Shown one piece after another: positions 1 to 20,124 of a stretch of 64,000 bases of DNA. This DNA is from a bacterium (GTDB taxonomy: Bacteria > Patescibacteriota > Minisyncoccia > Phycocordibacterales > Zambryskibacteraceae), in assembly GCA_030649135.1 (NCBI GenBank), contig JAUSGI010000006.1, positions 32,001 to 96,000 of the forward strand, in the 5' to 3' direction. The translations under genes and the position numbers were made by a program. The stretch's first letter is position 1. Each line of letters begins with the position of its first letter. The notes below the pieces were generated by a model. It had not been told where the DNA came from. It did not search any database and saw only the letters and a list, made by a program, of their open reading frames with translations.

Positions 1-1411
1 ACATGCTCTAGTTTACCTAACTCTCGCTTCCAAGCCTCAATTTCGCCCCTTAAGGTCTCTTTAATCCCCATGAACTCGTCGTCAGTCAGTTGTCCTCGCA
101 CCCTCATAAGCGCCAGCTCCTTCTGTTCATGTTGTTTCTGGTCTAATGTTTTTCGGAGAGACGTTTTTCTTTCAAACTCATTTTGCTTGTCATCCTTCTC
201 AAGAGCAGTGATGTTTTCAATACACCAATCGCTCAGTGCTTTTGATATTTTTAGCTTACTTCCGTAGTAATCAGCAAGGTATTTATCGATCGCAACTTCT
301 TCAACACACTTTTCTTTGCAGTTTGGATTTTTCTTTCTAGTGCAGTGATAGTAAATGTAGTGTAGGTATAATGGGGTTTCTATATCTGTAATAAGTACGC
401 TACATTTCGGACATTTTTCTTTGTCTCGGTAAGAGAACTTTAACTTGCAATCACAGATCACTTGATATTTATGTTCAGCCGTAACACCTCCGCCACAACC
501 TCCACATCTTGTTGTCGGATCTTTATATGGAAACATTTCTAGATTTACAGACGGTCTCTGTCTGCCTTTGTTACCCATAATCTTCTGTATGTGCCAATAA
601 TTCTCATCTGTGATCATTCGGGGAATACTCTCGTGTAGTTTGTGTCTCTCTCCATCCTTAGTGAAGAAGAACCCAGCATAGACAGGATTTTTTAGGATTG
701 TGCCTGCTATGTATGAGAGAACGAGTTTTTTCCCGCCCTGTCTTTTTCTTAATGGGGTGCGAAGACCCATCTCCTCATTTGCAATTCTTAAGAGTTTTCT
801 AAATGAGTACCGGCCGGTCAGATAGAGTTCGAGCAACTGCTTTATGAGTGGAAAACGATCTTTATCCACTAACCAACCCCTATTACCTCGCTCTTTGGAG
901 AGATCATTTATAAAACCTATAGTAGCAACGCCGTTAGGATAGCCCTTGTCTGCCCGCTCTCGTATACCTCTCTTTGTGTCAGTGCTTAGGTCGCGCACAT
1001 ATTGATTGGCCATACCAAGCTCAACAGACATGATGAGTACATTGTCGTCCGGGTAGTAGCTACGCCCGTAAGTTTGAATATGCTTTACTACGCTCTGTTG
1101 AAGCATCCAACTGATAGTGCCACCGTCCACAGGATTTCTTGCTAGACGATTTATTTTCCAAACAATTATCCCGTCTGCTTCACCTTTATTAAGTCGACTA
1201 ATCATATTTGTGAACACAGGTCTTCCGGGTGCCTTAGCCGACATTGATTCTTGAAGTATTTCAACAATCTCAAGTCCGTTCTCCGTTGCTAGTTCTTTGA
1301 GAACTTTTATCTGGTCTGGTATTGATTGCACTTGTCGATCCTCTGCATCACTCGACTTTCTCACATACATGAAGTACTTAAGTTTTCTGTCGTGTGTTTT
1401 ATTTATCATCT
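1..1411 (-). mobile_element. Large serine recombinase, partial: N-terminal ~470 aa in window, C-terminus beyond position 1
   Basis: Manual reverse-strand translation from the ATG at 1409-1411 runs open to the window edge. N-terminus MINKTHDRKLKYFMYVRKSSDAEDRQVQSIPDQ fits the resolvase catalytic motif (YxRxSS...Q). Downstream recombinase domain and zinc ribbon CGGCGG..CDC..CPKC. Absent from the ORF track because no stop lies in the window. Confidence 0.75.
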
Positions 1412-3546
1412 AATTTTCTGTTTACCCCAATAACAACATTACCGCTAGGTTCTGACAAGTCCAGCCCTTGTTTTTCGGCCACAACGCCTTGCCGGTCATA
1501 TTCTCGAACATGATGCCCTACCACATCCAAGTCAACTTTTGTTTTAGAGAGAGTATTTTCCCGCTCCGGCTCTGCCAAAATCAGCGAATCTTGGGAACAA
1601 GAGATGATGTTTGAAGAATCAGGGTTTTCTGTCGATTTCGTTTCTCGTTTTTCTCGTCCCGTATATATATGGGGAACAAGAGAACAAGAATAGAGATAGG
1701 GGTCGTTGCGCTTTCCAGCACCTGTACGTTGCACCGACCCTTTGGTAACTAAATCCCGTAACGCCTTACGCTTTAGTCCCGTGCGACCCTCGACCTCGTT
1801 TTCGATGGCCTTTTCGATAGATGACTCCTCTTGCTCGGATAGAAAAGTGAGAATCTCATCCGCAACACGCTGTATATCGTCATCTTCCTTCGTACCACCG
1901 AGAGACGTTGTCTGGGTTGTCTCATCGAATAGCAACACCGTCGACTCCGTATCTGTGCCGTAGCGTTGTTGGGTCTCGATGGTCCGTTTACCCTCGGTTC
2001 TTTTGAGAATAATCGCTGTATCGACAGAGCCAAATATTGCTGTCGAGCCAAGAACAGAATCGCCACCGCTCCTGTCACCTTTGCCCGCATGATGCACAAC
2101 CATCACATGCGCTCCATGCTCTCTGGCAAGCGTAAGCAATGGCGAGAGTGCTGCAGTCACTTCTGCGTAGTCGTTGCCATTTCTAATCGAGACGAAGCGA
2201 AATAATGTATCGATAATAACGAGCACAGGCTTGCGGGCGACAATTTCTTTCTCAAGCCATCTAGATGCTTCTTGAGGAACTGAACCAATATATGTGTACA
2301 AATCTTCACTACCTGTCGCTCCGAGCAACTTGAAGTGATTTTTAACCTCGCTTCGTTTTTCCTCAAGCGAAACATACAGGACAGCACCTTTTGTCGTTTG
2401 GCGACCAAGAAATATCTCGCCCTGCGCGACATAGAGTGCTAACTGCCTCGCGAGCGTTGACTTACCGACCTTTGGTTTCGCGACTATCATGGAAAATCCG
2501 CTTGTAGGAAGTAACCCATCAACGATCCAGCTTGTCTCTTCATCCGGCTCGTTCAGAAGTGTGCCAAGAGAGGTGAAGCCGAATTTTTCACGAACGACTT
2601 CTGCCGATTCTACAGCTGTTTTTACCGCAGAAGGACCCCGAAGTATATATAGGTCATTGAAATCAGTTGTAGTCCCTCCGTTGATTGTTTCACCATCCTC
2701 AAATTTCGGAATCGCTAATCGTGCGCCAATATTTGCCGCCTCTCTCGCTTTCAAGAGTCCGTTAGTATCAGCATCGGCACAGATAATTATTTCTGCATTT
2801 GGAAATTTCTTCCGCATTTCCTCAGCCGTTGCTCTTAGATTCGTGGAAGAAAATGAGATTGCTGTGGCATACCCTGTGGCCTCAAACACACTCGCGCCGG
2901 TGGCAAATCCTTCCACGATGCACAGTCGTTCCATTGGCACTCCTATGAGAAAGAAGCACTTTGCTGTTATAGCTTCACTCAGGAATTGTTTACCTCCATC
3001 AGCATCAATGAACTGTATAGACGAGAGAAAGCCGTTACCAGTGTAGAGCGGTAGTACCAGCTTGTTTCTCTTAAAACGAACTCCGTGTGGTAAAACTTGT
3101 TTCTTTTTGAGATATGGGAAGTCGACGGGTGCTTCGCTTGCAGCCTCCCAAATTTCTTGAGCATTTAGGGCGCCTGTGTGTTTTTCACTTCTTTGCGAAT
3201 CCTGTTTCTCCATAGCTGGCCGATGATAAATACCGTCTCCAAGATGTCGTGCAAACATAGTGAAATTTCCCTTTGCGTCGCACTTCTTGCAGTGGTATAA
3301 ACCTGTTTCGGAGGCAATGTATAGATGCGCCTCGTTGCCTTTGCTATCTCTGTCACAATCACCGAATATACAGTGGGTGATAAGTTCACCGTTCACTTCG
3401 CGAAATGGTATGTTTTTATTAGAGAGATACTCACGAACGGCGAGATATTCGTTTATTGCGTTGTTTTTCATGTACAGTCGGAGTTTCTTATTGAAATCCT
3501 GGTGTCCGACTGTACGTTCTTTCACCAGAACTTCAATAAAAAACAA
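1399..3546 (-). CDS. Primase-helicase fusion: zinc ribbon + Toprim primase + RecA-like (RepA/DnaB-type) ATPase
   Basis: 715-aa ORF. Zinc-ribbon pair HCIFGDC...YHCKKCDAKGN. Toprim motifs CIVEGFATGASV and IIICADADTNG. Walker A VAKPKVGKST and Walker B VLVIIDTL. The called start is TTG and the true start may lie downstream. Confidence 0.8.
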   Translation of the reverse strand: MFFIEVLVKERTVGHQDFNKKLRLYMKNNAINEYLAVREYLSNKNIPFREVNGELITHCIFGDCDRDSKGNEAHLYIASETGLYHCKKCDAKGNFTMFARHLGDGIYHRPAMEKQDSQRSEKHTGALNAQEIWEAASEAPVDFPYLKKKQVLPHGVRFKRNKLVLPLYTGNGFLSSIQFIDADGGKQFLSEAITAKCFFLIGVPMERLCIVEGFATGASVFEATGYATAISFSSTNLRATAEEMRKKFPNAEIIICADADTNGLLKAREAANIGARLAIPKFEDGETINGGTTTDFNDLYILRGPSAVKTAVESAEVVREKFGFTSLGTLLNEPDEETSWIVDGLLPTSGFSMIVAKPKVGKSTLARQLALYVAQGEIFLGRQTTKGAVLYVSLEEKRSEVKNHFKLLGATGSEDLYTYIGSVPQEASRWLEKEIVARKPVLVIIDTLFRFVSIRNGNDYAEVTAALSPLLTLAREHGAHVMVVHHAGKGDRSGGDSVLGSTAIFGSVDTAIILKRTEGKRTIETQQRYGTDTESTVLLFDETTQTTSLGGTKEDDDIQRVADEILTFLSEQEESSIEKAIENEVEGRTGLKRKALRDLVTKGSVQRTGAGKRNDPYLYSCSLVPHIYTGREKRETKSTENPDSSNIISCSQDSLILAEPERENTLSKTKVDLDVVGHHVREYDRQGVVAEKQGLDLSEPSGNVVIGVNRKLDDK

Positions 3547-3550
3547 AGAA

Positions 3551-3739
3551 TTAATTTATAATTGGTTTGACTATTGAACGTCTTTCCTCTGCCCGGGCAA
3601 GAGCAACACTAGCCAGTCGAGCAAGTCTCAACAGAGATACACCAAAAACCTGAGTTTCATCTTCACTCATTTGTTTTCCGTAATCTTTATAGAGAATAAG
3701 CCGAAGCTTCTCTATGGCTTGAGGTGAAAGAGTTACCAT
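3551..3739 (-). CDS. Small helical protein (~62 aa) inside the integrative element; function unknown (regulator/RDF-like?)
   Basis: Lower part of track ORF 3551..3796 from the internal Met MVTLSPQAIEKLRLILYKDYGKQMSEDETQVFGVSLLRLARLASVALARAEERR. No SD, like the other native genes. Confidence 0.35.
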   Translation of the reverse strand: MVTLSPQAIEKLRLILYKDYGKQMSEDETQVFGVSLLRLARLASVALARAEERRSIVKPIIN

Positions 3740-3987
3740 GCCGCGATCTCGTGGCTGTAGTGTGCGGTAACTTAAAAGGCTGCCACCGCATCCCACAACG
3801 TGAGATGAAATGGCAGCCCCTCAACTTTGCCTGCCCAGCGGGGTCCCACCCCCGATTTACTATCCTCGGGCTTATCCGGGGATACCTTGATACACCCCAC
3901 ATTGGCATGTATCAAGAGGTACGCTAACTTACTCAGTATAACAAAGTTTTGCTGATAAGTATGTGTAGATATCCACAGTAATAATGC

Positions 3988-4017
3988 TAGACAGAAAAAA
4001 GTTTGATACAATGTAAT
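3988..4017 (+). promoter_or_regulatory. Candidate sigma70-type promoter (TAGACA-18-TGTAAT) for the ORF-free structured RNA region
   Basis: -35 TAGACA at 3988-3993, 18-nt spacer, -10 TGTAAT at 4012-4017. Confidence 0.3.
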
Positions 4018-4024
4018 TGCTCTC

Positions 4025-4580
4025 GTGCATTAAGGGTGCATGAGCAAGGTCAGAAATGATAGCAACCGGCACTCAATTCAGATATGGCCTAAGTACCTAC
4101 GATAAACAAGTTTGAAGGAACCATCGTTTTGACTGGTACTTAGGTAGGGAGGAGGGTAAAACCAACTCCAAACCTTAGTCCCTTAAACTTTGGTTTGGGT
4201 GTCAGGCTGAAAAGTCTTACTCCTGAACTGAGTGCCGGTCATAGTGATGGTTCCTTTTGCTTATCCGTGGTCTAAAGGCAATAGGCTATGAAAAAGCTGG
4301 CTAGGCACATTTAACCCCACTGCCATTAACAACGGCACAATTTGGGGGCTGACAAATCTTGGGGCGTGGAACTTCTTCGCTCTACAGCATGTTGTCAGAC
4401 AGCAGCAGGCAACGATCAACGTACTGACCGCAAGGTTGGCACAGTTGGAAAATCGTCTCCCTGCTCCCGCACAGGCATCGCGGCCTCTATTGCCTAATAC
4501 GAATAATCGCCGTCTACCGTAAGGTAAACAGCGATTACTCTGGATTAAAGCAGGTGTCCCGAAAGGGACGCTTGCTTTTT
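4025..4580 (+). ncRNA. Candidate large structured ncRNA (~550 nt); class unknown, strand uncertain
   Basis: About 630 bp with no ORF over 60 aa in any frame. Long-range complementarity 4065-4080 with 4223-4238 (16 bp, one mismatch) and CCUAAGUACC with GGUACUUAGG near 4088-4140. GNRA hairpins UACC-GUAA-GGUA (4515-4526) and GUCCC-GAAA-GGGAC. Ends at a hairpin plus U-run. Confidence 0.4.
4548..4580 (+). terminator. Intrinsic terminator-like hairpin (AGCAGGUGUCCC-GAAA-GGGACGCUUGCU) followed by UUUUU
   Basis: About 13-bp stem with GAAA tetraloop and a T-run at 4576-4580. May also serve the convergent minus-strand gene 4639..5157. Confidence 0.55.
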
Positions 4581-4638
4581 ATTATACCCCCGCCAGTAAC
4601 GGCGAGAGCAACCAATTTACCCTACCTGTGTATAACTA

Positions 4639-5157
4639 TCAAGCTGTGCCTGATTCTGGCTCATATTCATACTGTTTGCGTACCTCCCGCATACTAACGG
4701 GGCGATAGTTCTCCGCATCTTCTATCATGCTGATTCTCGGCATTATTGCCATGTTTTCTGGTATGGACGTGTCAAACTCTTCACGACGCTTCCTTGCCAG
4801 ATACCACATAGCTACCTTTGGGTCCGTTTCTAGCCGGTCCACAATGGTCTTTCTAGCTCTTAGTACAGGCATTTGTCTAAGAGCCTCAATTATATGGGAA
4901 AACTCCGGATGCTTCTCTACGAAATACTTATACTGATCTATTGAAATACCTGCTGAAAAGCACGCTTCTTTGATAGTTGCATCGTATTTGAAGGCGGTGA
5001 TTAAGCGGAGGACTTTTCCCTGATCACGATACCAGGCGTTGGCTGAGTTTTCGACCCGCAAAATGCCAAAAGCTCTGTCTTTAATGGTGTACGCGTACTG
5101 ATCTAACTTAGTTACTTCTAATACTTGATGGGTAGTGATTTGGTTTTGGTCTGTCAT
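4639..5157 (-). CDS. HTH-containing hypothetical protein (possibly terminase-small-subunit-like or regulator)
   Basis: 172 aa. Segment TIKEACFSAGISIDQYKYFVEKHPEF resembles the HTH of TerS or transposase-OrfA-type proteins. Lies next to the recombinase/primase module. Confidence 0.45.
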   Translation of the reverse strand: MTDQNQITTHQVLEVTKLDQYAYTIKDRAFGILRVENSANAWYRDQGKVLRLITAFKYDATIKEACFSAGISIDQYKYFVEKHPEFSHIIEALRQMPVLRARKTIVDRLETDPKVAMWYLARKRREEFDTSIPENMAIMPRISMIEDAENYRPVSMREVRKQYEYEPESGTA

Positions 5158-5197
5158 TCAAGCATTATATCTCAACTTCTATAGCCAGAGAACTATC

Positions 5198-6094
5198 TTA
5201 ATACCAACAGAACTCAGCTTTTTCTCCTATCTGATCTTCAACGTACTTCGTAGCAGTCGTGATATCTCCAATCTCATCAATCAGTCCAGACTTCAAAGCG
5301 TCCTCGCCTATATAGGTTAATCCATTAGCCAGACTCTCAACAGCCTTTAATTCAAGGCCTCTGTTCGTTGCCACATCCTTGACAAAAACATTGTGAGCCT
5401 TGCGGACGTCAGATAATAGAATCTCCTTTTCTTCCTGTGTTAATGGTTTGTTTGGATCACCAGTATCCTTATATTTAGCAGAAGAGAGTTCTACGAATGT
5501 GTAACCGTCCTTTGCGTTTTTATTGGATTCATTTAGATAAGAAGCTGTTACCCCAATACCTCCCACATCAGAGATTTTAGAAGCGTATATTTTATCCGCA
5601 CCGGTAGCCGCCCAGTAGGCAGCCGAAGCTCCAATACCTCGTATGACAGCCACGCTTGGTTTATCAAGACTTTTTAATGCTCGCGCTATTTCCTCTCCAG
5701 CTACTCCATCACCTCCGGGTGAGTCAATCGACAACATCACTGCTTTGATATCTGGATCATTTTGAGCACGTAGTATCCCATACACGATATCTTCTGACGA
5801 GGAAACATCCACTTCCTGTCCCTCTGGCTGGCTTGGTAAGTATGTACTCAAGTACCCTTTGATTGAGAATGCCAAGACATTACAGTCATCCTGTTGTAAT
5901 GAGTCAGTGATAGTAGTCTCTTCAGAAAAGTATGATCCTGCAAGAAAAGCCAGCACTCCAATAACTACAGCTAGTATGAGTACTTTCTTCTTGCTGATCT
6001 TTTTCTCCTCGTTCATATTCAAGATTATAGCTCTATTTCTTAATATATTCCCTATTCCTTTCCTTATGTCTTTCAATGATTCTCTGTGGATCAA
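5198..6094 (-). CDS. sppA: Signal peptide peptidase SppA-like (S49 peptidase, ClpP/crotonase fold)
   Basis: Motifs SIDSPGGDGVAG and GIGASAAYWAATGADKIYA with an N-terminal TM helix. Likely true start at the internal Met (MNEEKK, coordinate 6016), which would remove the overlap with 6033..6473. Confidence 0.75.
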   Translation of the reverse strand: MIHRESLKDIRKGIGNILRNRAIILNMNEEKKISKKKVLILAVVIGVLAFLAGSYFSEETTITDSLQQDDCNVLAFSIKGYLSTYLPSQPEGQEVDVSSSEDIVYGILRAQNDPDIKAVMLSIDSPGGDGVAGEEIARALKSLDKPSVAVIRGIGASAAYWAATGADKIYASKISDVGGIGVTASYLNESNKNAKDGYTFVELSSAKYKDTGDPNKPLTQEEKEILLSDVRKAHNVFVKDVATNRGLELKAVESLANGLTYIGEDALKSGLIDEIGDITTATKYVEDQIGEKAEFCWY

Positions 6095-6473
6095 AGGCTT
6101 TGCTTAATGGCATTGATGTTTCGAATTGAAAACTATTTTTAATGGCAGTCATAAGCTCCGGCCATTCCGGTATATATTCGCTATCAATCTCCTCATCAAT
6201 AGCTTCAGATATTTTACGTATTATTTCATCTTCATATATAGAGGTGTAATCATCTGTATCCATAAGATCACTAAGAGCGTCATCGTGGTACCTCTTAAGA
6301 AGAGCTAAATTAAGTTCCTCTGCTTTTTTTAGATTTTCCATATCAGCATCCAATGCTAGTCTCAGAATCACATTGCTCTTAAAGCTTTGGTATTTAGATA
6401 ATCTGTCAATCGTTCTAAGGAGTCTAAACCAGAGGATGAATAATACGGCAAGTAGTATATAGATTAATGTCAT
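6033..6473 (-). CDS. Hypothetical membrane-anchored protein (146 aa), acidic C-terminal region
   Basis: N-terminal TM helix LIYILLAVLFILWF. No recognisable domain. Confidence 0.45.
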   Translation of the reverse strand: MTLIYILLAVLFILWFRLLRTIDRLSKYQSFKSNVILRLALDADMENLKKAEELNLALLKRYHDDALSDLMDTDDYTSIYEDEIIRKISEAIDEEIDSEYIPEWPELMTAIKNSFQFETSMPLSKAFDPQRIIERHKERNREYIKK

Positions 6474-6475
6474 AA

Positions 6476-7417
6476 TTAATAAAAGATTGGCTTTTCACAA
6501 TACCAAGAATAGTTAGTCGGGTTTTTGTTAACACACTCTTGATATTGTTGCTGTTGGTATAGTTTGTATTCTAGATCGCTTTGTGGAGTATTAGTCCCGC
6601 ATTTAACCTCCCTGATTCTTCTTTGTTGTTGCGGAGATAGAGTTCGTAGTTCTGGCGGAGTAGGTTCTAATAAACAATCTGATTGTTGTTTTTGGGCTGT
6701 TATTGACTGTTGTTGCTGTTCACTTTTTGCCTTGTTATATTTCTCAACCTGAGCATCAATAAGTATTCGAAAACTCATATTACTCATGTAGCCATCGAGA
6801 AATTTAGAGTCTTTGCACGTTAGTGAGTTCACTTCTGGAACTTCCCCGCACATTTTAAACAGAGCACCCAGTTGTTGTGCCGTGGGAGGGGTAGCATACG
6901 GTTGTTGTATTTCCGCTTTGCTGTTCTTGCGAACCCACTGATTGCTTTCCTTTCTGTAGTATCTTTCTTCCCTCTGACGAGTAATGGAAATGGATGTCCA
7001 TCCCTTTGAATCAGCTTCGATGAAGAATCTTCGCTCCAGACTTTCCCAGGTCTCGACAGCAGGTGTCGCGATGTTTGAAGTAGTTATATTATTTATCGGT
7101 AGTGTCTCTTTTTCTATATTGTTTGCAGTAGACTGTTTCTCTTTTAACTTTTCTACCTCTCTTTTCAGCTTTTCAATTTCAACACTTTGATTGTCTACTA
7201 CGGGTACTGGTTGTACTTTTTCTGTAGTTACTGTTGGTTTTTCTACTTTATTCGGAACTACTACCGAAGAGGTTGCACTCTCGCTCGGCACTGGTTGTTC
7301 GATTTTTACTTCTTGCTTCTTATTAAATATTCTCCATGTAAATGGATTCCACCATGCCGCAAAAGCCACCTGAGGAATTATTATCGCAAGTAGGATTATT
7401 GGAATTATTTTTTTCAT
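6476..7417 (-). CDS. Hypothetical secreted protein (313 aa), Q/T-rich, several Cys pairs
   Basis: Signal peptide MKKIIPIILLAIIIPQVAFA. Its start overlaps the downstream 72-aa gene by 4 nt (ATGA), suggesting translational coupling. Confidence 0.55.
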   Translation of the reverse strand: MKKIIPIILLAIIIPQVAFAAWWNPFTWRIFNKKQEVKIEQPVPSESATSSVVVPNKVEKPTVTTEKVQPVPVVDNQSVEIEKLKREVEKLKEKQSTANNIEKETLPINNITTSNIATPAVETWESLERRFFIEADSKGWTSISITRQREERYYRKESNQWVRKNSKAEIQQPYATPPTAQQLGALFKMCGEVPEVNSLTCKDSKFLDGYMSNMSFRILIDAQVEKYNKAKSEQQQQSITAQKQQSDCLLEPTPPELRTLSPQQQRRIREVKCGTNTPQSDLEYKLYQQQQYQECVNKNPTNYSWYCEKPIFY

Positions 7418-7632
7418 AATTTTGGGGGAATTTCGTCGACTTTCTTTTTGTTAAGTTTGTAGTTCAAGTGAGAATAAAGAACTATGCCTAGTGGCCAGAT
7501 TAATGCTCCTGCCAAGGCCGCAATGATTTTGTTCATATTGTGTCTCTGAGCAACTCTATAACAATAAACACCAGACCAAATAACCATCACCACACCTACT
7601 AAGTACAGAAGACCACCTAGTACAGATCCCAT
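7414..7632 (-). CDS. Small 2-TM membrane protein, PLD-nuclease N-terminal (PLDc_N)-like
   Basis: 72 aa. Motif KIIAALAGALIWPLGIVLYSHL matches the K..W..P..G..Y pattern of PLDc_N-family small membrane proteins. Preceded by structured RNA copy A. Confidence 0.5.
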   Translation of the reverse strand: MGSVLGGLLYLVGVVMVIWSGVYCYRVAQRHNMNKIIAALAGALIWPLGIVLYSHLNYKLNKKKVDEIPPKL

Positions 7633-7657: not shown

Positions 7658-7792
7658 CAAAGCCCGCTACCAGGAAGGCGCCTTTCGACCACCTCTACCA
7701 GAGTTTCCCCTGGTAACGCGACGAACGCCCTGATAACGGGTTCTCTATGTTCGTCGCGCTTTCTTGCCATGCCGGTGGTTGCCCGGTTTAGG
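7658..7792 (-). ncRNA. Conserved structured RNA motif, copy A (candidate cis-regulatory leader or riboswitch-like element)
   Basis: Shares conserved blocks (CCUAAACCGGGCA..CCGGCAUGGCAAGAAAG and CUGGUAGCGGGCUUU) and two covarying stems with copy B at 9021-9152. Sits in the 5' UTR of the 72-aa membrane-protein gene. G-U pairs appear only in the minus-strand reading. Confidence 0.5.
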
Positions 7793-7836
7793 TTTGTCGC
7801 ACATCCACAGTTGCATAATTCTATGGATGTTCTGAA

Positions 7837-9020: not shown

Positions 9021-9152
9021 CGGGCACAAAAAGCCCGCCACAGGTAGAGGCCGAGGCCCCTCATACCGGTTTCCCGATATGGCGATCAAGCGACCCTATG
9101 ACGGGGTTTTTACCTTGATCGACTTTTTGCCATGCCGGTGCCCGGTTTAGGC
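9021..9152 (-). ncRNA. Conserved structured RNA motif, copy B
   Basis: Aligns with copy A. Stems GUCGAUCAAG/CUUGAUCG and CAUAUCGGG-AAAC-CGGUAUG covary with the copy-A stems. Ends in the hairpin GCGGGC-UUUUUGU-GCCCGC just before the start codon of the 100-aa gene. Confidence 0.5.
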
Positions 9153-9276
9153 CTATTTTCTTCACACTACCATTTTACCAGTTTTACAGAGTTAAGCTAA
9201 TGGCCTCAAATGTTCTCCTTCGAGCAGGGCAACTAAAGGTGGCAAAAGCGGTAGTGCACGGTATACTTCTTCTAAA

Positions 9277-10497
9277 ATGTTATATACCAAGCCCATTACT
9301 GAAATTACTTATGTCGATGTCATTGACTTCTGCAAACAGTCGTTAAAAGAGAATATAAACCTGGACTACAAGCTGGATGTCGATACTGGCATAGCCAAGA
9401 CCATAGCGGCAATGGCTAATACTTGGGGTGGGCTGATTGTGGTCGGTGTTGAAGACGAGGATAGTAAGCCCAAGCTACCTGTCGAGGGTATTCCATATCG
9501 CGAGCACATTGAGGAGCAGATAAACAACATTATTCTAGGTAATATCACTCCGCCAACCTTTCCAGAAGTTAAGGTGTGCCTGTCTGAAAATAAAGAGAAA
9601 ATGTTTGTGGTAATCAGGATTCCACAAAGCAATCTCACGCCTCATGCTATTAGGGGCAATACCAGAGTCTACATCAGAACCAATACTAGCAATGAACCTG
9701 AAGAAGAAATAACTATAGAAAAGTTAGGGTGGTTAGTTGATAAGCGAAAAAAGTCACTCGACCTGAAAGAACAACTACATCAGGAAGCTGATAGACGGTT
9801 TGAAAAACTATGCAGGATACAAGGAATAAAAAATTTTAGACATAACGATGTTAGTCTTATGACGTCTCCTCTATATCCATTCGAAATTCTAACTAAAAAG
9901 GAGCAACTTATCAGGGAGATACCTGAAAGGATGCGGACTGAAGCCTGGGGTAGATACTTCCCAAAGACTTTACATAGAACAAGCTACGAAGCTATTAATG
10001 GCGGTAGTTATGCCTTTATCTCGAATGGTCAGTCAGGATACTTTCTATATGAGGAATTTAATCATTACGGTCTTTTTTATCATAGGGAAGATTGGTGTAA
10101 AAGTGATAAAGATGAAGAAACTGGAGAAATCAAGCACACAGGTTTTTTGCATAGCTATTTATCCGAGATAGACCTAATGATTGAATCCGCAAGTAAATTC
10201 TATTCTGCAGTAGGATACTGGGGTCTTGTCGAAATAAAAGTTATTGCCAGAGAGTTAGAAGAAGTCAATTTTAGGGATTTACCAGCTCCAAAAGGTTTCT
10301 ATAAATTCGATAAACTTGAGAAGAGACCCATTGATAATAATCTTGAATTTACCAAAGAAGTTTCGGTCAGAGAACTGGTAGAAAAAAGGGTGGCACTAGT
10401 AACATATTTGATGCTCGATTTGAGCTGGGCACTTGGCTTCACTCATATCGATGAAGAAGGTATAGGAAGACTTCTAGAGGAGCAGGGTCGTCTCTAG
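9277..10497 (+). CDS. Schlafen/AlbA_2 (divergent AAA, putative DNA-binding) domain protein, defence-associated
   Basis: N-terminal motif IAKTIAAMANTWGGLIVVGVEDED matches the AlbA_2/Schlafen core. C-terminal ~200 aa unassigned. Adjacent and convergent to the Type III R-M system. Confidence 0.7.
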   Translation: MLYTKPITEITYVDVIDFCKQSLKENINLDYKLDVDTGIAKTIAAMANTWGGLIVVGVEDEDSKPKLPVEGIPYREHIEEQINNIILGNITPPTFPEVKVCLSENKEKMFVVIRIPQSNLTPHAIRGNTRVYIRTNTSNEPEEEITIEKLGWLVDKRKKSLDLKEQLHQEADRRFEKLCRIQGIKNFRHNDVSLMTSPLYPFEILTKKEQLIREIPERMRTEAWGRYFPKTLHRTSYEAINGGSYAFISNGQSGYFLYEEFNHYGLFYHREDWCKSDKDEETGEIKHTGFLHSYLSEIDLMIESASKFYSAVGYWGLVEIKVIARELEEVNFRDLPAPKGFYKFDKLEKRPIDNNLEFTKEVSVRELVEKRVALVTYLMLDLSWALGFTHIDEEGIGRLLEEQGRL

Positions 10498-10689
10498 AAT
10501 AGTCATTTTGGCTCTTACGTGCACAGGACCATCTGAAGCATTGTGTCCGGTACCTCTTTCTCCTAGTAGTTCTGTACTATCATGGCAGTTCTTCCTAATG
10601 CTCGTTCTGGCTCCCTGTGATCGTTTCTGGTGCGAGTTTATCTTCCGTTGAGAAACCCGACAAAGAATCAGGACCAGAGACAGATATGG

Positions 10690-13203
10690 TCACTCTGAAA
10701 GTGAAACATCTAAGGATGACCTGAAATTTTCTATATTTTTATCTCTGATACTTTGGAAATATCCGTTGAAATCTGTCGGGGTAAGGAAGTTGAATTTGTA
10801 TGATATGCCTTTCTTATTCTTTCGTAAATACGCATTTATCCTTTCAAAATGAGCGAGCGCATATTCGTTTTTCTTTTTGTTCTCCACGGACGGCTCGCTA
10901 ATCTCGTCGTCGTCTTTAATCTCAACAATCAAAATCAACTTGCCGGTCTTGATAAAAAAGTCGGGATTGAATTTTCCACGCTTTGGATGTTCGCCTTTCT
11001 TCCAAAAATAATCAATCTCGTAGAAACTCATCGGCGTTGATTTAATCCATGCGTCAATGTGTTGCGTGTTTTCGGATTTTACTAGCTCTTTAACGAATCT
11101 GCGCTCATTGTCATGATCCGAGACAACAGCATTGAGCGGTGTTTTGAAATCATAATGATTGGCGACTTTTGCGCACTTAAACCCGCTCCCTTCCTCCACG
11201 GCTTCTTCGTAAAATTCTTTATACTCATCCGGCATATTTTCTTTCGTTTTGCTTGTATAGAAAATCGTTTTGCCATTTTTCAGGTCGGATGCGCTTGCGC
11301 TCTCCTGCGGTCGCTCGGTCGTTAATATCGGATAGTAATTTGTCGGCTCAAAATCATAGCGAACCACTTGCGCTGCTTTTCTTTGAAGCGTTCCGAGCGA
11401 CTGCAAAAACTTTTGCCGCATATTTTCGGTAATAACCTTGTTGTCTGTTTCTTTAAGCGATTTTTTTACAATTTCCTCCAGTTTTTCAACGGGAAATTGC
11501 TTTATGTAAAATTTGCGGTCTTCGCCGTCCACCAAATCCTCAAACCGCTGGAACATCACCTCGGCAACTTCGTGCGTGGTATAGGTCTTATGCTTGATTT
11601 TCGTTTTCCATTGTGTCCGCACGCCGGTATCTGCTTCCTCAAACTCAACTGTCATATCCTCCACAGGAAGTTCCGTTGAAAGATCAACATAACCCTTTTT
11701 GAATAACTGATATGGCTTCTCCATTTTGTAAGTTTCGGTGCGCGGCTTCGGATCGTACTCAATGTTCAGCAGTTCAAAATTAAATTCGGACGAGGTAACT
11801 GGAAATGTTGGTATTCGTTTTTCAAATTCCAAAACTTCATGGACAAGGTGTCGTATGTCATCCGCCCATCTATCATGATTGAAAACAGTTACTTCCGGTT
11901 GCGCGCCTTTCCAGCCGTCCGGCACGCGTAAGCCGCGCCCAAGCACTTGAGCGATAAGCAACTTACTTTCAAACGCTCTTTTTTCGTGGGGGACAATTTG
12001 AAAAACGCGTTTTACATCCCAACCCTCGTTGAGCATGGAAACCGACAAAATCCACTCGACCTTACTGTTTGCGTTGTTTACGCTTGCGAGGCGCGGCAAA
12101 TCTGGTGCGTCGCTATGAATAACAAGCACCTGTTCGTCAATCTGCTCTCGGCTTTTGCCGGTCTCTTCTTTCAAAAACGCTTTGAATTTTTCTGCTACAT
12201 CTTTACACCCACTAATATCTTTCGTAACGATAATTGTAAGCGGGCGCAATTTATGCGCTTTCAATTTGCGCCTTATTTCTTCGTGGTGATTAAGTACCAA
12301 CTGCCACTTTTCTGTTTCCGGTTGTCTCGTCTGCGGCATTTCGGCAACATACTGCACTTTCTTAACAAATTTTTCTTCCATTGCTTGCCGCAACGAGTAA
12401 CGATAAATCACATCGGAAAAATACTCGTTGCCGAGATAGCAAGTGCCAGAAACGCCAATGACATAACGAAAGCCGTAATCTGGATCGGTCAAAAATTCCT
12501 TCCACTTTTTCGCTTTGCTCGCCACTTCGTTTGCGACATGGTGCGTCTCGTCGTTCAAAATGAGTGTCCTGTCTCCTTTGCCCTGCAGGCTGTCGCGGAT
12601 TGACGAGCGCACATGAGCGAGAATTGCGTGATAGTTTTCTATACAAATACTGCCAGATACAATGCTTTCGCTCGCGTTTATGACGTGCGGAGCGTTCACT
12701 GCTGCGTTTGCGGGTAAAAGGTCGCGCAAGTCGGCGTTTCCTGCCAGTAGCTCAAATTTTTCCAGCAATCCGGTCTCTATCGTCGTGGACGGACACAACA
12801 CTAAAACTCTATCAACCGCGCCCTCGGCAAGCATGATCGCCGCAATGCCATACATCACATAGCTTTTGCCCGTGCCGGTCGCCAAATCAAGCGAGGCGGC
12901 GAGTTGGTCCGGCAATTGCAAATACCGTTCCAGATTTCCGATTGAGCCGTATTTATCGCGCAAAACTTCGTTATGCTCAAAATTCTTTCCAGCCAAATCG
13001 CGCAAATCCCGATACTCGCCGCCGAGTAAATACCGCGTAGCGGCGCGGATTGCGTCTTTTTGATACTCACGAATGCCGCAAAGCTCATCAAGAAACGCCT
13101 CGTACTTATTTTCGTCCCATTTGCGACGATCAACCGAAGTGCTGACATCAAGCACTAGGTCTTCATTATGAAATCGTTTTGTTCCGTTTGTTCTTCTTGG
13201 CAT
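10690..13203 (-). CDS. res: Type III restriction enzyme Res subunit (SF2 helicase plus C-terminal PD-(D/E)xK nuclease)
   Basis: 837 aa. Helicase motif I LATGTGKSYV and motif II LILNDETHHV. C-terminal NPDFF...LILIVEIKDDD nuclease motif. Immediately downstream of mod. Confidence 0.85.
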   Translation of the reverse strand: MPRRTNGTKRFHNEDLVLDVSTSVDRRKWDENKYEAFLDELCGIREYQKDAIRAATRYLLGGEYRDLRDLAGKNFEHNEVLRDKYGSIGNLERYLQLPDQLAASLDLATGTGKSYVMYGIAAIMLAEGAVDRVLVLCPSTTIETGLLEKFELLAGNADLRDLLPANAAVNAPHVINASESIVSGSICIENYHAILAHVRSSIRDSLQGKGDRTLILNDETHHVANEVASKAKKWKEFLTDPDYGFRYVIGVSGTCYLGNEYFSDVIYRYSLRQAMEEKFVKKVQYVAEMPQTRQPETEKWQLVLNHHEEIRRKLKAHKLRPLTIIVTKDISGCKDVAEKFKAFLKEETGKSREQIDEQVLVIHSDAPDLPRLASVNNANSKVEWILSVSMLNEGWDVKRVFQIVPHEKRAFESKLLIAQVLGRGLRVPDGWKGAQPEVTVFNHDRWADDIRHLVHEVLEFEKRIPTFPVTSSEFNFELLNIEYDPKPRTETYKMEKPYQLFKKGYVDLSTELPVEDMTVEFEEADTGVRTQWKTKIKHKTYTTHEVAEVMFQRFEDLVDGEDRKFYIKQFPVEKLEEIVKKSLKETDNKVITENMRQKFLQSLGTLQRKAAQVVRYDFEPTNYYPILTTERPQESASASDLKNGKTIFYTSKTKENMPDEYKEFYEEAVEEGSGFKCAKVANHYDFKTPLNAVVSDHDNERRFVKELVKSENTQHIDAWIKSTPMSFYEIDYFWKKGEHPKRGKFNPDFFIKTGKLILIVEIKDDDEISEPSVENKKKNEYALAHFERINAYLRKNKKGISYKFNFLTPTDFNGYFQSIRDKNIENFRSSLDVSLSE

Positions 13204-13205
13204 AA

Positions 13206-15077
13206 TTATTTTTTAGCTTTGGCACGAAGCACTTTTGGTGTAATGACAATGCGTGATTCGTTGCCGTAAATATCCAAAAATACGAGCATGACATCACCTT
13301 TAATTTCTTTGGTGGGTAGCTCTATTTTCCACTTGTTATCTTTTATCGCGCTCGCGTAAAACGCTTTATCCAAATCAAATACCTTTCCGTTGTAATCGTA
13401 ATCTACCATCACCATTGAAAGCGCGTCGTGCTTGCTAATTTTATCCTCTCCGCGCAGTCGCGCCTTGCTCTCAAACTTCTTTATTTTAACAGACACGGCT
13501 TGTTTCTTTGCGGCAAGCTCAAGCTCAACTACCGGCGGCTGGATAAAATCAAAACCCACCGCCTCAACGGTTTCGTTGATAGCCATTTCGTCGTTTGGCT
13601 GAACGAGCGCGGAAAATTTACGTCGGTGCAGTTCGTTGATAAAAGAATACGGAATACGAAGCGCGTAATATCGCACACCGTCCATTTCGAGATAATCCTC
13701 TTGGAAAAGGAACGCGCCGCGCGGAGCAATAATAAAGCAACGATCTCCAACGGCTTTTCCAATGCTTGCGTGCAAGTCTGCTATTGTCTGCTGGCTAATC
13801 TGTCCTTCCTTAAAATGATTGAAAACATGAACGCTTGAACCTTGTCGCTTGCCATCCATTTGGAAGCCATGAATTTTGTGTGGCTCGTCTTTGCACTCAA
13901 AAAGCTGGAGCGCAAAAAATCGCCAATCTTCCCACGGCAAATTTCTCAAATTCTCAAAATCATACAAACCAGCGTTATAAAGTGTGAACGGCTTGGCGGC
14001 AAGCGACTCACCAGTATTGCTGATATTTTTGCGTAAAGTTAGCATTCGTTTTTGAATGGTATAAACTGCGAGCTTACTTACATCAATTGCAATCCAGCGT
14101 CGCTCTAACTTTTCGGCTGTCGCGGAAGTCGTTCCCGAACCCGCAAAAACATCCATAACAATATCACCTTTATTTGAGGAAGCTTCAATAATGCGCTTAA
14201 TCAATGCCTCTGGTTTCTGTGTCGGAAAATCAACTCGCTCTTTTGAATCCGCCTCTGTACCTAAAGGATAAATATCTTCCCAAACATCCCTACATACAGA
14301 ATTGTGATACCACTTTTGTTTGTCTTTATCGAAAAATTCAGGATATTTTTCACTAAAGTTATATTTCTTTTGCTGATACGATTTGTAGTATTGTGTGTTA
14401 AAAAGAAAATTACCGTTTTTTGCGTAGTAATAAATATTATCGTGTTTTCTGGCAAAGAAATTTTTACTTACACCACCAGTCCTATAACTCCAAATAATCT
14501 CATTTATAAAATTTTGTTCTCCAAAAATTTCATCCATTAAAACTTTTATGTAATGGCCTTTCCTATAATCAAGATGCACATAAATTCCACCATCATTTGC
14601 GAGTAACTCTTTTAAAAGAATAAGCCTCTTTCGCATAAATTCTAAAAATGCGCTGCCAGCAATTTTATCTTGATATGCTTTTTGATCTTGGCTTCCTTTG
14701 AAATCTCGCCGTGTTGAAAATGGTGGATCAATGTAAATAAGCCGAACGCCCGGCGTGCCGTCGGCGTTCACCAGCTTTCCATCTGCTTTCATTTGCAAAA
14801 GCGTCTTTATAGCCTGCAAATTGTCGCCAAAAATAAGTTTGTTGTGCCAATCAACCCCGTTCTGTCCAAAAGTGCTGACTTCTTGAAACGGCACAGCCAT
14901 TGTGTCGGCGAGAATTTGCTCCTCGGTTTCTTTGCCGTTGTAGACAAGTTCGTACTCGCGGCGTTCGGGCGGAAAAAACTCTCGCGCCCACTCTGCCGGA
15001 AGTTCCTCGCCGGTTTCGGTCAGCTTGAGTCCTCGTTTTAGCAACTCGTATATCTTTTCTTGACGACGTTTGTCCAT
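13206..15077 (-). CDS. mod: Type III R-M Mod subunit (beta-class N6-adenine/N4-cytosine DNA methyltransferase)
   Basis: 623 aa. Motif IV IYIDPPF precedes motif I VMDVFAGSGTTSATA (beta-class order, motif IV before motif I). mod-res operon arrangement. Confidence 0.85.
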   Translation of the reverse strand: MDKRRQEKIYELLKRGLKLTETGEELPAEWAREFFPPERREYELVYNGKETEEQILADTMAVPFQEVSTFGQNGVDWHNKLIFGDNLQAIKTLLQMKADGKLVNADGTPGVRLIYIDPPFSTRRDFKGSQDQKAYQDKIAGSAFLEFMRKRLILLKELLANDGGIYVHLDYRKGHYIKVLMDEIFGEQNFINEIIWSYRTGGVSKNFFARKHDNIYYYAKNGNFLFNTQYYKSYQQKKYNFSEKYPEFFDKDKQKWYHNSVCRDVWEDIYPLGTEADSKERVDFPTQKPEALIKRIIEASSNKGDIVMDVFAGSGTTSATAEKLERRWIAIDVSKLAVYTIQKRMLTLRKNISNTGESLAAKPFTLYNAGLYDFENLRNLPWEDWRFFALQLFECKDEPHKIHGFQMDGKRQGSSVHVFNHFKEGQISQQTIADLHASIGKAVGDRCFIIAPRGAFLFQEDYLEMDGVRYYALRIPYSFINELHRRKFSALVQPNDEMAINETVEAVGFDFIQPPVVELELAAKKQAVSVKIKKFESKARLRGEDKISKHDALSMVMVDYDYNGKVFDLDKAFYASAIKDNKWKIELPTKEIKGDVMLVFLDIYGNESRIVITPKVLRAKAKK

Positions 15078-15325
15078 TCAATTCATCATACCCCAAAACA
15101 TCTCTATTCGTCTTGCATTGCCAATATATGTATTATCTATCCTCATACTGTCATTGTGGCTTGCTGTGGTCCTCTGGGGCGCGAGTTTTGTGCTATTTTG
15201 TAGTTACGCCTTGTTGGCCCGAAATCTCACTATATTGCCCTAAAGCACACGTTCTAACTTCGTTCAACATGCGGAGCCAGTCAGAATTTGGCAAGGTTTT
15301 GGGAAAAGAAAAACTTTGAACTACA

Positions 15326-15682
15326 ATGGACGAAAAAGCAGAAAATAAAAATGATAAGCCGATTCTGTCGAAGACGAAAAAGGTTATCATATTGGCTCTT
15401 GCCATAACTTTTTTTGTATTCTCCATATTCAATGTATATTTAGAAATTCGCAGGCAATTTATGTGTAGTCAGATGGTACTTCTTAATGCACAAATCCCGC
15501 CCTCCGACATTGATAGTTACATCTTGAGAAAAGAGGCTTTTGAAAATGTTTGCCTTGAAAGAACTGGACTTGGAAGTTACTTTTGGGCATTCGCTAGTTT
15601 CTGGTTTCTCGGCTATGTGATAACTTTTTTCGGCAAACATCCAGAAAAAGTACAAGCTAAGGATAACGGCATTGCTTCTTGA
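15326..15682 (+). CDS. Hypothetical 2-TM membrane protein (118 aa)
   Basis: TM helices VIILALAITFFVFSIFNVYL and YFWAFASFWFLGYVITFF. Confidence 0.5.
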   Translation: MDEKAENKNDKPILSKTKKVIILALAITFFVFSIFNVYLEIRRQFMCSQMVLLNAQIPPSDIDSYILRKEAFENVCLERTGLGSYFWAFASFWFLGYVITFFGKHPEKVQAKDNGIAS

Positions 15683-17499: not shown

Positions 17500-17901
17500 G
17501 TGTTATCGTCTACCCTAGAAAGGGGTGTCCGAATGCCTAAGTCAGCAGGTAGAGAAAAGAAGCTGGTAGTGTACGGGCAGACCTTGCAGAAAGCTCGACT
17601 CTCCTCAGGCATACTCAACCAAAAGCAAGCAGCCTCCCGCCTAACAGATGGTGGGCTACAGTGCTCTCAGCCTCTTATCGCTCAACACGAGACTGGCCGG
17701 ATAGTGGATCCTTCGCTAAATTTTTTGAAGGCCATTGCAGCTTTGTACGAAGTTGACTACCGAGACCTGGTCGCTGTACTCGTGATGGATAAGTACGGTG
17801 TCGATTTCACCTCTGGAGAGAAGCCTCGGAACTTGCTGATCCAGCTCGTGGAAAAAAATCTGGAGGAGTTGCAAAAGGAGCTTGCCAGGCTCAAGAAATG
17901 A
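17500..17901 (+). CDS. XRE-family HTH transcriptional regulator
   Basis: Segment LVVYGQTLQKARLSSGILNQKQAASRL is HTH_XRE-like. Probable start at the internal Met 17533 with AAAGGGG upstream. Confidence 0.65.
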   Translation: MLSSTLERGVRMPKSAGREKKLVVYGQTLQKARLSSGILNQKQAASRLTDGGLQCSQPLIAQHETGRIVDPSLNFLKAIAALYEVDYRDLVAVLVMDKYGVDFTSGEKPRNLLIQLVEKNLEELQKELARLKK

Positions 17902-18800: not shown

Positions 18801-18954
18801 CTATAAAGAGAATTTTATGGTCGCGGAGCCAAGTATTGACTTTGGTATCCGATTGTGATTGAATGTTTGAAGAAAGCACGGGGGACCCGATTTCGTCGTG
18901 ATGTTTCTGCTTCAAAGTGTACGCATTTAGAGGCGCTAAGGAGGGAAACTGCTC

Positions 18955-19203
18955 GTGACGAACAATAGACCGAACGACATACACTGGGGTGCGTATCCGA
19001 AGGACGCTGTGCAGTGCGACGGCTGCGGTGGCCATGGATGTGACGTCTGCGGCAACAGGGGCTGGTTGCCTGCTGGCCACCCTCAAGGAAGGCGATGCCG
19101 ACGGGAAGGATGCAGGGAGCCGATTGCGCCGCCGCATTTCGGTGTCTACTGCACTCAAACATGCGCCTTCTTAGACAAGTCACGGACTCAGGACAGAATG
19201 TGA
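18955..19203 (+). CDS. Small Cys-rich zinc-ribbon-like protein (82 aa) in GC-rich island 1
   Basis: GTG start with AAGGAGGG 8 nt upstream. Cys pairs CDGCGGHGCDVCGNRGW..CRREGC..YCTQTC. About 60% GC. Followed by a strong terminator. Confidence 0.55.
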   Translation: MTNNRPNDIHWGAYPKDAVQCDGCGGHGCDVCGNRGWLPAGHPQGRRCRREGCREPIAPPHFGVYCTQTCAFLDKSRTQDRM

Positions 19204-19211
19204 CCGCCACC

Positions 19212-19267
19212 GCCGCGGGACGCGAGAAAAACCTCTCGTCCCGCGGCAGAGGGGCGGCTTTTCTTTT
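19212..19267 (+). terminator. Intrinsic terminator (GC stem about 13 bp plus UUUUCUUUUU)
   Basis: GCCGCGGGACGCGAG...CUCGUCCCGCGGC followed by a T-run at 19257-19267. Confidence 0.6.
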
Positions 19268-19509
19268 TATACATAGATTCGAACATCCTCAACCCAGCCA
19301 AGTGGTATGAACGACAAAAAAGCTATTGAAATATTAATGGGGATAGACCACAGGTATAAATTAAGCGACAAAGAAAAAGATGCTATTTCTTCAGCCATTG
19401 GCATGCTCAGCTAGTCTTCACTGACTCAAAGCAGACTAGAATCCAAGAAAAGAAAGCGAGACTAAGAATCACTCAGGTGGTGCCAAGCTATTGAACCTAT
19501 ACGTAACTA

Positions 19510-19538: not shown

Positions 19539-19600
19539 AGATAAGTAGCCAAATTCCACGCTAATTTCAAGACCACTTGGGATAGCTAAGGAGAAGAGAG

Positions 19601-20068: not shown

Positions 20069-20124
20069 TCTGGAACAACAAGTAGTATCCGGCTCCACAA
20101 ACGATTGGCTCTATACAGCCCGCC

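Follow-up and report, generated by a model that had tools for sequence, protein, structure and literature searches.

The left end of the DNA stretch examined here, a 64,000-nucleotide window of contig JAUSGI010000006.1 (positions 32,001 to 96,000), raises the question of what kind of mobile element combines a large serine recombinase with its own replication enzyme in a Patescibacteria-type metagenome-assembled genome (MAG), and of where that element ends. Analysis was centered on positions 1-5160 of the window, and the island proposed below extends to ~18.8 kb. In the first-pass annotation five features had been named in this block, a serine recombinase, a primase-helicase fusion, a small helical protein, a segment free of open reading frames (ORFs) and a helix-turn-helix (HTH) protein, and all five were recovered in place on the minus strand. 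With somewhat better than even confidence, the block is interpreted as the integrase-proximal end of a ~19-kb site-specific island with the lifestyle of a phage satellite or of a tycheposon resembling the phage-inducible chromosomal islands (PICIs). Comparison of related loci showed that the element belongs to a family of serine-recombinase islands which, on sequence evidence, inserts at the 3' ends of tRNA genes and exchanges modules between elements.

Protein families were assigned with Pfam, PHROG and NCBIfam profiles, structures were predicted with AlphaFold2 (AF2) and compared by fold search against PDB and BFVD, and protein homologs were sought among 5.8 billion protein clusters. Related loci are labeled L002, L010, L011, L013, L015, L025, L026, L036, L043 and so on. 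L018 and L022 are viral contigs (IMG/VR) that carry a homolog of the 172-amino acid (aa) HTH protein, and L037-L116 include the loci obtained from GTDB representative genomes scanned with the recombinase.

Serine recombinase and tRNA integration

The large serine recombinase is encoded on the minus strand at positions 3-1409, where the N-terminal 469 aa are visible; the ORF is open at the window edge and the C-terminus lies beyond it. The visible portion matched the Pfam families Resolvase (PF00239, 2.9e-19, residues 13-156) and Recombinase (PF07508, 9.8e-5, above the family cut-off), and it matched phrog_95, an integrase family, at 1.7e-41 in PHROGs. The catalytic YVRKSS motif was located at residue 15 and clusters of Cys at residues 301-360. 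The Zn_ribbon_recom family was unreported for the truncated window protein, and the full-length homolog in L002 scored 22.0 bits against a cut-off of 25.3, i.e. below it. The two Pfam domains, phrog_95 and the catalytic motif confirm the earlier identification of this protein as a large serine recombinase. Its closest relative (L025/L037) was 89% identical in the recombinase, 80% in the helicase half of the replication protein and 85% in the SppA-type peptidase described below. When GTDB representatives, among which the MAG of the window itself is absent, were scanned with this protein, 80 loci were returned, many of them under Patescibacteria lineage labels.

The sequence of L025 continues past the recombinase, and the recombinase ORF there has its stop codon inside an antisense tRNA-Asn(GTT) gene, an arrangement also found in L002. 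Among the 75 GTDB loci with a readable ORF end, the recombinase stop overlapped an antisense tRNA gene at its 3' end in 34 (L037, L038, L040, L041 and 30 more of L037-L116). The target was an Asn tRNA in 15 of these and a Gln, Trp, Ser, Leu, Gly, Ala or other tRNA in the rest, and target choice tracked recombinase similarity. Since the stop lies inside the tRNA 3' end, part of the C-terminal coding sequence of the recombinase would be derived from the tRNA. All four of the closest relatives with enough sequence (89, 65, 61 and 59% identity) used tRNA-Asn(GTT), and because their recombinases end in this gene the window element should abut a tRNA-Asn(GTT) approximately 0.6 kb to the left of position 1. 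This agrees with the earlier placement of the left boundary outside the window.

Extent of the island

The position of the right boundary was examined with the aid of L002, in which a direct repeat of the last 15 nucleotides (nt) of the tRNA was detected at 2096-2110, with similarity resuming past a 2-nt insertion. This repeat lies 11.6 kb from the tRNA, beyond a methyltransferase/ResIII helicase pair, a 148-aa protein, sppA and a homolog of the 172-aa protein, the latter assigned below to the terminase small subunits (TerS). In the window, TGGTCGCGGAGCCA on the plus strand at 18818-18831 comprises the last 12 nt of tRNA-Asn(GTT) followed by CA, and is the putative distal attachment (att) remnant marking the right end of the island. 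The 12-nt match at 18818-18829 begins precisely at the tRNA 3' end and is oriented as expected; on one strand of 64 kb, an anchored match of this length would be expected ~0.004 times by chance. The CA following the 12-mer is present in L002 as well and reads as an encoded CCA end, and the distal repeat of L002 contains the same 14-mer.

A right boundary before sppA, as proposed in the first-pass annotation, is probably wrong. Adjacency of sppA and the TerS gene was found in three diverged elements (window, L002 and L025), genes beyond sppA are shared with relatives, and the methyltransferase/ResIII pair and a conserved non-coding block are syntenic; for these reasons sppA is placed inside the island. 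The genes beyond sppA that belong to the element family are accompanied by LOOT RNAs, and the L002 repeat lies beyond the restriction-modification genes there, its counterpart in the window being the repeat at 18818-18831. The island therefore probably measures ~19 kb, with a right end at ~18.8 kb, and would include sppA, the restriction-modification-like pair and two LOOT RNAs, an extent assigned with moderate confidence. Housekeeping genes (TypA/BipA) appear only from 24.6 kb onward. Immediately outside the putative att remnant, positions 18832-20100 are GC-rich (0.53 over 19-20 kb vs ~0.40 in the neighboring sequence) and contain only overlapping unannotatable ORFs on both strands, together with a strong hairpin followed by a T-run at ~19205-19265.

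Replication module

Upstream of the recombinase, the minus strand encodes a 715-aa protein (1399-3546) in which a zinc-ribbon and Toprim primase is fused to a RecA-like (AAA_25) helicase. The start codon is TTG, and an ATG is present at residue 26. Pfam matches were obtained to AAA_25 (1.2e-34), Toprim_4 (2.2e-8) and Toprim_3 (8.8e-8), and the PHROG matches included the DNA primase phrog_2249 (8e-49) as well as primase-helicase families. The Cys4 motif HCIFGDC..HCKKCD, the Walker A motif KPKVGKST and the Walker B motif VLVIIDT, along with the Toprim and AAA_25 domains, confirm the primase-helicase fusion called previously. Homologs numbered 290 at E<=1e-20 and came from metagenomes and MAGs, the sole informative source name being 'Patescibacteria group bacterium'; a primase-helicase scan of viral contigs returned no match. 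In relatives the helicase half is joined to other primases, either a Prim-Pol (PF09250) or an NrS-1-polymerase-like helix-bundle (PF22763). The island in L015, whose primase-helicase is 57% identical, is integrated at tRNA-His and encodes, upstream of the small ORF and the primase-helicase, a reverse transcriptase (730 aa, RVT_1; 5156-7348) as well as a DUF5659 protein.

The small ORF that precedes the primase-helicase (3551-3739, minus strand) encodes a conserved 62-aa protein. Homologs were present in L002, L010, L011, L015 and L025, located just upstream of the primase-helicase or the recombinase, and because they recur in related elements the ORF is counted as a real gene on sequence grounds. 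The AF2 model (predicted local distance difference test, pLDDT, 89.9) has helices at residues 6-20 and 26-56 forming a two-helix hairpin. This small helical protein had been put forward with little confidence, and its conservation and model now give it firmer standing. No match was found in Pfam, PHROG or NCBIfam, and a comparison with PDB folds gave no recombination directionality factor (RDF) or other match, only weak and non-specific histone-fold-like matches at E>1.

Terminase small subunit homolog

The 172-aa protein (4639-5157, minus strand) belongs, as judged from profile matches and from the viral contigs in which its homologs lie, to a terminase-small-subunit family. It matched the TerS family phrog_4102 at 4e-8, and phrog_4102 was matched by every member tested (the window protein and those of L018, L022, L025 and L043). 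Only nine relatives were found among the protein clusters, and a scan of IMG/VR with an alignment of these nine identified eight viral contigs. The gene context in these contigs is that of a packaging module. In L018 the TerS homolog is directly followed by a terminase large subunit (TerL; phrog_38 5.9e-67, Terminase_6C) and then by a Mu-type portal (Portal_Mu 8.9e-36), and in L022 it is directly followed by TerL (phrog_38 4.1e-24). A resemblance to TerS had been suggested earlier at low confidence; phrog_4102 and the position of the homologs directly upstream of TerL and a Mu-type portal strengthen that suggestion.

Structural evidence was more modest. The AF2 model reached a pLDDT of 62, with a helical core at residues 46-123 modeled at 70-88. 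Searched against BFVD, the model retrieved phage proteins (top E 2.7e-8) with names such as 'Terminase small subunit' and 'Homeodomain phBC6A51-type', the named TerS lying near E 1e-2. Matches to PDB structures were weak, with Sf6 gp1 and phBC6A51 only at E ~3 and HTH regulators dominating, and a PDB sequence search with the TerS profile gave nothing significant. A scan of the genome collection with the TerS alignment also returned no match. No TerL gene was detected in the window, the adjacency to TerL holding for the phage-borne homologs only; a TerS gene with no neighboring TerL is as expected for a satellite-borne terS.

Interpretation of the island and alternative explanations

The order of TerS homolog, variable gene, small ORF, optional primase-helicase and serine recombinase recurred in L002, L010, L025 and L043. 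This recurrent architecture, the recombinase itself and the tRNA association in relatives uphold the earlier claim of an integrative element. Families of capsid, portal, TerL, tail and lysin proteins were absent from the scanned ORFs of 1-18.8 kb, among which several small proteins had no annotation. With an integrase, a replication module and a TerS, and no structural genes found, PICI-like is a fair description of the layout. We infer a satellite lifestyle in which the recombinase would integrate the island at the tRNA-Asn(GTT) 3' end, the displaced tRNA 3' end being at 18818-18831, and in which the island would excise via the same enzyme and replicate autonomously with its own primase-helicase. 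The island TerS would then steer the TerL and capsids of a helper phage to package island DNA. The remaining load would be the restriction-modification pair, a Schlafen/AlbA_2 protein, the SppA-type peptidase, small membrane proteins and two LOOT RNAs.

Several observations weigh against a satellite island with these boundaries. The tRNA-Asn junction lies outside the window and the left end is placed from relatives, the right-end repeat is just 12-14 nt long, and a weakly att-like stretch at ~15440-15480, beside the conserved non-coding block, could be an alternative, older or composite boundary. No helper phage is known, and family scans of the module identified no Stl, AlpA or CI type repressor, no excisionase (Xis) and no capsid-remodeling gene. 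Deposited phage genomes (50,697) searched by tblastn with the TerS homolog yielded no match, and the TerS family is therefore known from uncultivated viruses only. Furthermore, the TerS homolog of L043 lies immediately upstream of the recombinase, in the position held by an Xis/RDF-like HTH_17 gene in L013 and L026, and because of this shared position the TerS homolog could function not in packaging but as an accessory factor that binds DNA.

That arrangement in L043 also favors a second explanation, in which the locus is a phage-independent, integrative and self-replicating defense or cargo island (an integrative plasmid or cargo-type tycheposon) and the TerS-like HTH protein is a DNA-binding regulator or the RDF of the serine recombinase. 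This explanation is possible and clearly less probable than a satellite or PICI-like tycheposon. It would accommodate the defense-like cargo (the methyltransferase with its ResIII helicase, and the Schlafen/AlbA_2 protein), the finding of no other phage-interference or capsid gene, and the weak PDB fold matches of the TerS homolog, mostly to HTH regulators. It is harder to reconcile with phages that place this TerS family directly before TerL and portal and with a TerS PHROG matched in every member tested, and in the window the TerS gene is 3.2 kb from the recombinase with replication genes in between. Improbable, and more so than the phage-independent island, is a decayed ('grounded') prophage in which integrase, replication genes and terS outlasted the loss of the structural genes. 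All three retained functions are indeed phage-type, and an S49 peptidase that matches head-maturation protease families adjoins terS; however, the N-terminus of this protein contains a hydrophobic segment and the protein scores above the SppA_dom cut-off, and neither tblastx comparison nor domain scans revealed a remnant of TerL, portal or capsid. The genes are intact, modules are swapped between elements, and the same architecture free of structural genes is found in diverged elements from different organisms (L002, L010, L025 and L043), all of which argues against decay of a single prophage.

Structure-prone ORF-free spacer

Between the TerS stop (4639) and the start of the 62-aa ORF (3739) no credible gene is present, as far as can be judged from the ORFs predicted there. 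The ORF-free stretch was delimited at 3797-4638 (~840 nt), and the portion of the spacer that is unique in comparison with relatives spans ~3693-4660 (~0.97 kb). The first-pass annotation had described ~840 bp with no ORF above 60 aa. This description holds for 4012-4638, in which no ORF exceeds 52 aa, and fails for 3687-4011, in which three overlapping mechanical ORFs of 67-79 aa occur, none with homologs. Three parts can be distinguished: a core of normal GC content (4012-4638), an AT-rich block (3930-4010) and a GC-rich leader ending in a terminator-like hairpin.

The core is a structure-prone orphan segment, delimited by its folding z-scores and by its lack of homologs. Folding of 3740-4640 gave z = -10.7 on the minus strand and -12.3 on the plus strand, and in a separate calculation the spacer scored z = -6.4 compared with +1.0 to -2.2 in the control, which consisted of 19 other 842-nt windows from the same contig. 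The predicted fold contains stable hairpins with UUCG/GNRA-type loops and nested long-range complementarities spanning ~600 nt (4017-4025/4603-4611, 4137-4149/4620-4632 and 4276-4284/4487-4495), with alternative pairings of 4223-4239 to either 4065-4081 or 4115-4151. An 18-bp hairpin with a UUAC loop (4501-4540, minus strand), recovered both as inverted repeat I5 and in the fold, has three non-Watson-Crick pairs that are G-U on the minus strand only. A 14-bp hairpin with a tetraloop followed by a plus-strand T-run (4547-4578, plus strand) was found by the terminator scan and resembles an intrinsic terminator; its two non-Watson-Crick positions are G-U on plus and A-C on minus, and it faces the 3' end of the TerS gene.

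The AT-rich block (3930-4010, GC 0.30) carries divergent extended -10-like motifs, TGATACAAT on the plus strand at 4004-4012 and TGTTATACT on the minus strand at 3943-3935, and is a candidate promoter or origin. The hairpin of the leader, GGGGCUGCCA...UGGCAGCCUUUU (3769-3827, minus strand), ends ~35 nt before the start of the 62-aa ORF and is a putative terminator. Its loop exceeds the length limit of the terminator scan, and it was found as an inverted repeat (I2). Relatives also have a hairpin and a U-rich tract just before the small ORF. As to a classical origin, no tandem repeats or iterons were detected, and DnaA-box-like sites were not clustered in the spacer.

Relatives of the spacer were sought at several levels. 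A search of 3400-5300 against Rfam 15 gave nothing better than E = 2.9, the three families listed to E 10 being far below their gathering scores, and a window-wide scan at gathering thresholds returned tRNAs and LOOT only. When the 10-kb regions flanking relatives of TerS, the primase-helicase and the recombinase (116 loci, ~1.5 Mb) were searched with nhmmer, no homolog of the spacer was found, the 62-aa ORF part alone being matched. Phage (2.3 Gb) and plasmid (7.3 Gb) sequences were likewise without a match by blastn at word size 11. A composite query built from translations in six frames, aimed at a decayed gene or at spurious ORF calls on homologous RNA loci, gave no candidate at E<=10 in the protein clusters. 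A duplicated 17-mer, ACCGGCACTCARTTCAG, was tried as a marker of relatives; it had eight matches in viral contigs with no extended similarity, and these were attributed to chance.

The equivalent slot in relatives is occupied by protein genes. L002, L010 and L025 encode a 237-257-aa protein there (10608-11354, 5819-6592 and 1890-2603, respectively), the three being 30-40% identical to each other, and L036 encodes another protein (~876-1346). These proteins start with M[AN]KKGG or MARGG. None matched Pfam, NCBIfam or PHROG, and the window contains no such gene; a profile of the slot proteins (p248, p257, p237) found no match in any of the six frames of the spacer. The slot proteins may be the specificity or regulatory determinant of the element. 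Because relatives encode a protein in this slot, the window element has put ~0.97 kb of unique non-coding DNA in the place of a fast-evolving protein gene. Directly upstream of the small helical ORF, these relatives carry a two-hairpin motif (L002 11365-11440, L010 6600-6675 and L025 2622-2696) that is absent from the window, where a different hairpin is found. The hairpin and U-rich tract noted above for relatives form part of this motif. The second stem of the motif has compensatory changes (GGCCCTTG/CAAGGGCC, GGCTCTCG/CGAGAGCC and GGCCCTCTG/CTGGAGGGCC), and its invariant loop, GACCACCC, is complementary to an upstream GGGTGG, which suggests a possible pseudoknot.

The spacer is most likely transcribed non-coding DNA, either a regulatory leader or a non-coding RNA, a conjecture under which it would gate read-through into the replication-integration operon. 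Pointing the other way, no covariation is available since no homolog was found, the long and near-perfect hairpins would also fit DNA-level signals or recent junk, and the strand evidence from folding energy and from the asymmetry of G-U and A-C positions is conflicting, with the minus strand giving the better fold for 4250-4640 and the plus strand for 4010-4260.

A substantial probability, somewhat short of even, is given to the ORF-free 840 nt not being a functional RNA, but either what is left of an accessory gene that was replaced or an element that works as DNA, for example an origin, a loading site for the primase-helicase or a pac region with DNA hairpins. Its orphan status, a hypervariable slot that is normally protein-coding, the roughly equal folding of both strands and the AT-rich block immediately upstream of the replication operon are all compatible with this. 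Remains of a gene are at odds with the finding of no trace of the slot protein family, even by profile against six frames, and an origin is at odds with the lack of iterons, tandem repeats and DnaA-box clusters. Neutral junk would not explain a fold z-score far outside all 19 controls, and the UUCG/GNRA-type loops and nested long-range pairings are more RNA-like than a classical origin. That the spacer is a new large structured non-coding RNA which, in this one satellite-like island, has taken the place of the slot protein is unlikely; in a phage satellite of Patescibacteria it would then serve as an RNA-based regulator (P4-style immunity or antitermination) or as an RNA module that counters phages or senses the helper.

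Cargo genes and shared non-coding elements

Beyond the TerS gene, the minus strand encodes an SppA-type S49 peptidase with an N-terminal hydrophobic segment (5198-6094; Peptidase_S49 9.9e-33) that is probably part of the island. It scored 157.4 bits against TIGR00706 (cut-off 155.45) and matched the head maturation protease family phrog_53 at 5.9e-48. Three small membrane or secreted proteins of 146, 313 and 72 aa follow (6033-7632, minus strand) and are common to related elements. Between the 146-aa protein and the 148-aa protein of L002 the identity is 58%, and the C-terminus of the 313-aa protein matches a 237-aa protein of L010 that adjoins the TerS gene there.

Two copies of the LOOT RNA (RF03000) were detected on the minus strand, the first at 7675-7794 (61.3 bits against a gathering score of 46.4, and 99.4 bits with a purpose-built model) and the second at 9046-9153 (64.7 bits, and 83 bits with the purpose-built model). 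Single copies were present in 10 of 91 related loci (L002 8205-8330, L010 4074-4199, L013 5812-5932, L026 1141-1264, L038 6571-6695, L041 6327-6451, L062 15231-15363, L075 7352-7477, L089 3224-3361 and L090 5933-6065). In the three elements checked (window, L002 and L010) LOOT lies 40-90 nt upstream of a same-strand gene for a small membrane or secreted protein, of 148 aa in L002, 237 aa in L010, and 72 aa and 313 aa in the window. Such a position looks more like that of a 5' leader than that of a free-standing small RNA.

A 406-aa Schlafen/AlbA_2 protein (9277-10497, plus strand; domain 7.3e-18), located between the restriction-modification pair and a LOOT RNA, is the sole annotated plus-strand gene in 1-15.1 kb and may be defense-related cargo. 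The restriction-modification-like pair itself (10690-15077, minus strand) consists of an N6/N4 DNA methyltransferase (623 aa, N6_N4_Mtase 1e-46) and a ResIII/SWI2-SNF2 helicase (837 aa, ResIII 3.2e-14), and is syntenic in L002, where it lies on the inner side of the att repeat. A conserved non-coding block of ~136 nt (15155-15290, minus strand) is ~92% identical to L002 2265-2400, with unalignable flanks. This block is also present in L003 and L035, and it had no match in Rfam. In the window, 78 nt separate it from the methyltransferase gene downstream, and in L002 it is found ~155 nt inside the att repeat. An HTH_31 protein is encoded at 17500-17901.

Significance and comparison with known systems

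In the ultra-small Patescibacteria, or Candidate Phyla Radiation (CPR), mobile elements and phage parasites have barely been described, and a full-text literature search retrieved no title or abstract on such islands in this group. Together with its ~90 relatives, the locus suggests that islands with serine recombinases form a widespread clade, one that targets tRNA 3' ends, swaps replication, TerS and cargo modules, and often carries LOOT. If the TerS does hijack helper phages, the satellite lifestyle would be extended to CPR bacteria, providing a handle on phage-host-satellite networks in groundwater. The tRNA-targeting serine integrases are a possible practical source of new site specificities, and the structured spacer would matter only if it is a true functional RNA.

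Among known systems, the PICI-like tycheposons integrate at tRNA genes and carry an integrase (large serine recombinases in a minority), primase/helicase genes and terS or a major capsid protein gene (Hackl et al., bioRxiv 10.1101/2020.12.28.424599). They were described in Prochlorococcus and other marine bacteria (bioRxiv 10.1101/2020.12.28.424599). The island is likened to them by layout: a tRNA-associated island of 10-20 kb with a site-specific integrase, a primase/helicase, terS in the absence of structural genes, and modular cargo. The full tRNA with a distal partial copy that is typical of tycheposons is present in the relative L002, and only the distal partial copy is visible in the window. 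Unlike them, the window element resides in a Patescibacteria-type MAG, and a serine recombinase is the rule for its whole clade, with an ORF that ends inside the tRNA.

PICIs, such as the Staphylococcus aureus pathogenicity islands (SaPIs), likewise combine an integrase, a primase/replication module and their own TerS in a similar size class, with no capsid, tail or lysis genes found in the window. In contrast to PICIs, the integrase of the window is of the serine and not the tyrosine type, no Stl/AlpA-type regulator, excisionase, Ppi or Cpm was recognized, and the replication enzyme is a single gp4-like fusion as opposed to Pri and Rep with an iteron origin. The bifunctional primase-helicase gp4 of T7 has the same order of a Cys4 zinc-binding region, Toprim and a RecA-fold ATPase of the hexameric helicase type. 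It differs in that the ATPase of the window protein matches AAA_25 (RepA/RecA-like) and not DnaB_C, and in that relatives of the window protein swap the N-terminal primase.

Satellite phage P4 likewise integrates and encodes a primase-helicase fusion. Termination upstream of the P4 replication operon is controlled by an RNA immunity factor and by a long untranslated leader that contains complementary segments. A terminator-like hairpin is found at the corresponding position in the window spacer, as are alternative long-range pairings, and an analogy to RNA-based immunity may be drawn as speculation. There is no sequence or family relationship between the two, however; P4 alpha combines a different primase with a superfamily 3 helicase, and the P4 integrase is of the tyrosine type. 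GOLLD and ROOL are large non-coding RNAs of unknown function associated with phages and prophages. The spacer resembles them as an ORF-free segment of several hundred nt on a mobile element that is predicted here to be highly structured, but it matches neither Rfam family, and its lack of homologs leaves no covariation for comparison.

Every protein belongs to a type described before, and the layout is shared with known satellites or tycheposons. What sets the element apart from these systems is its host lineage, the consistent use of a serine integrase with an ORF that ends in its tRNA target, a replication fusion resembling gp4, LOOT RNAs that occur frequently and, in this member, an orphan structured spacer.

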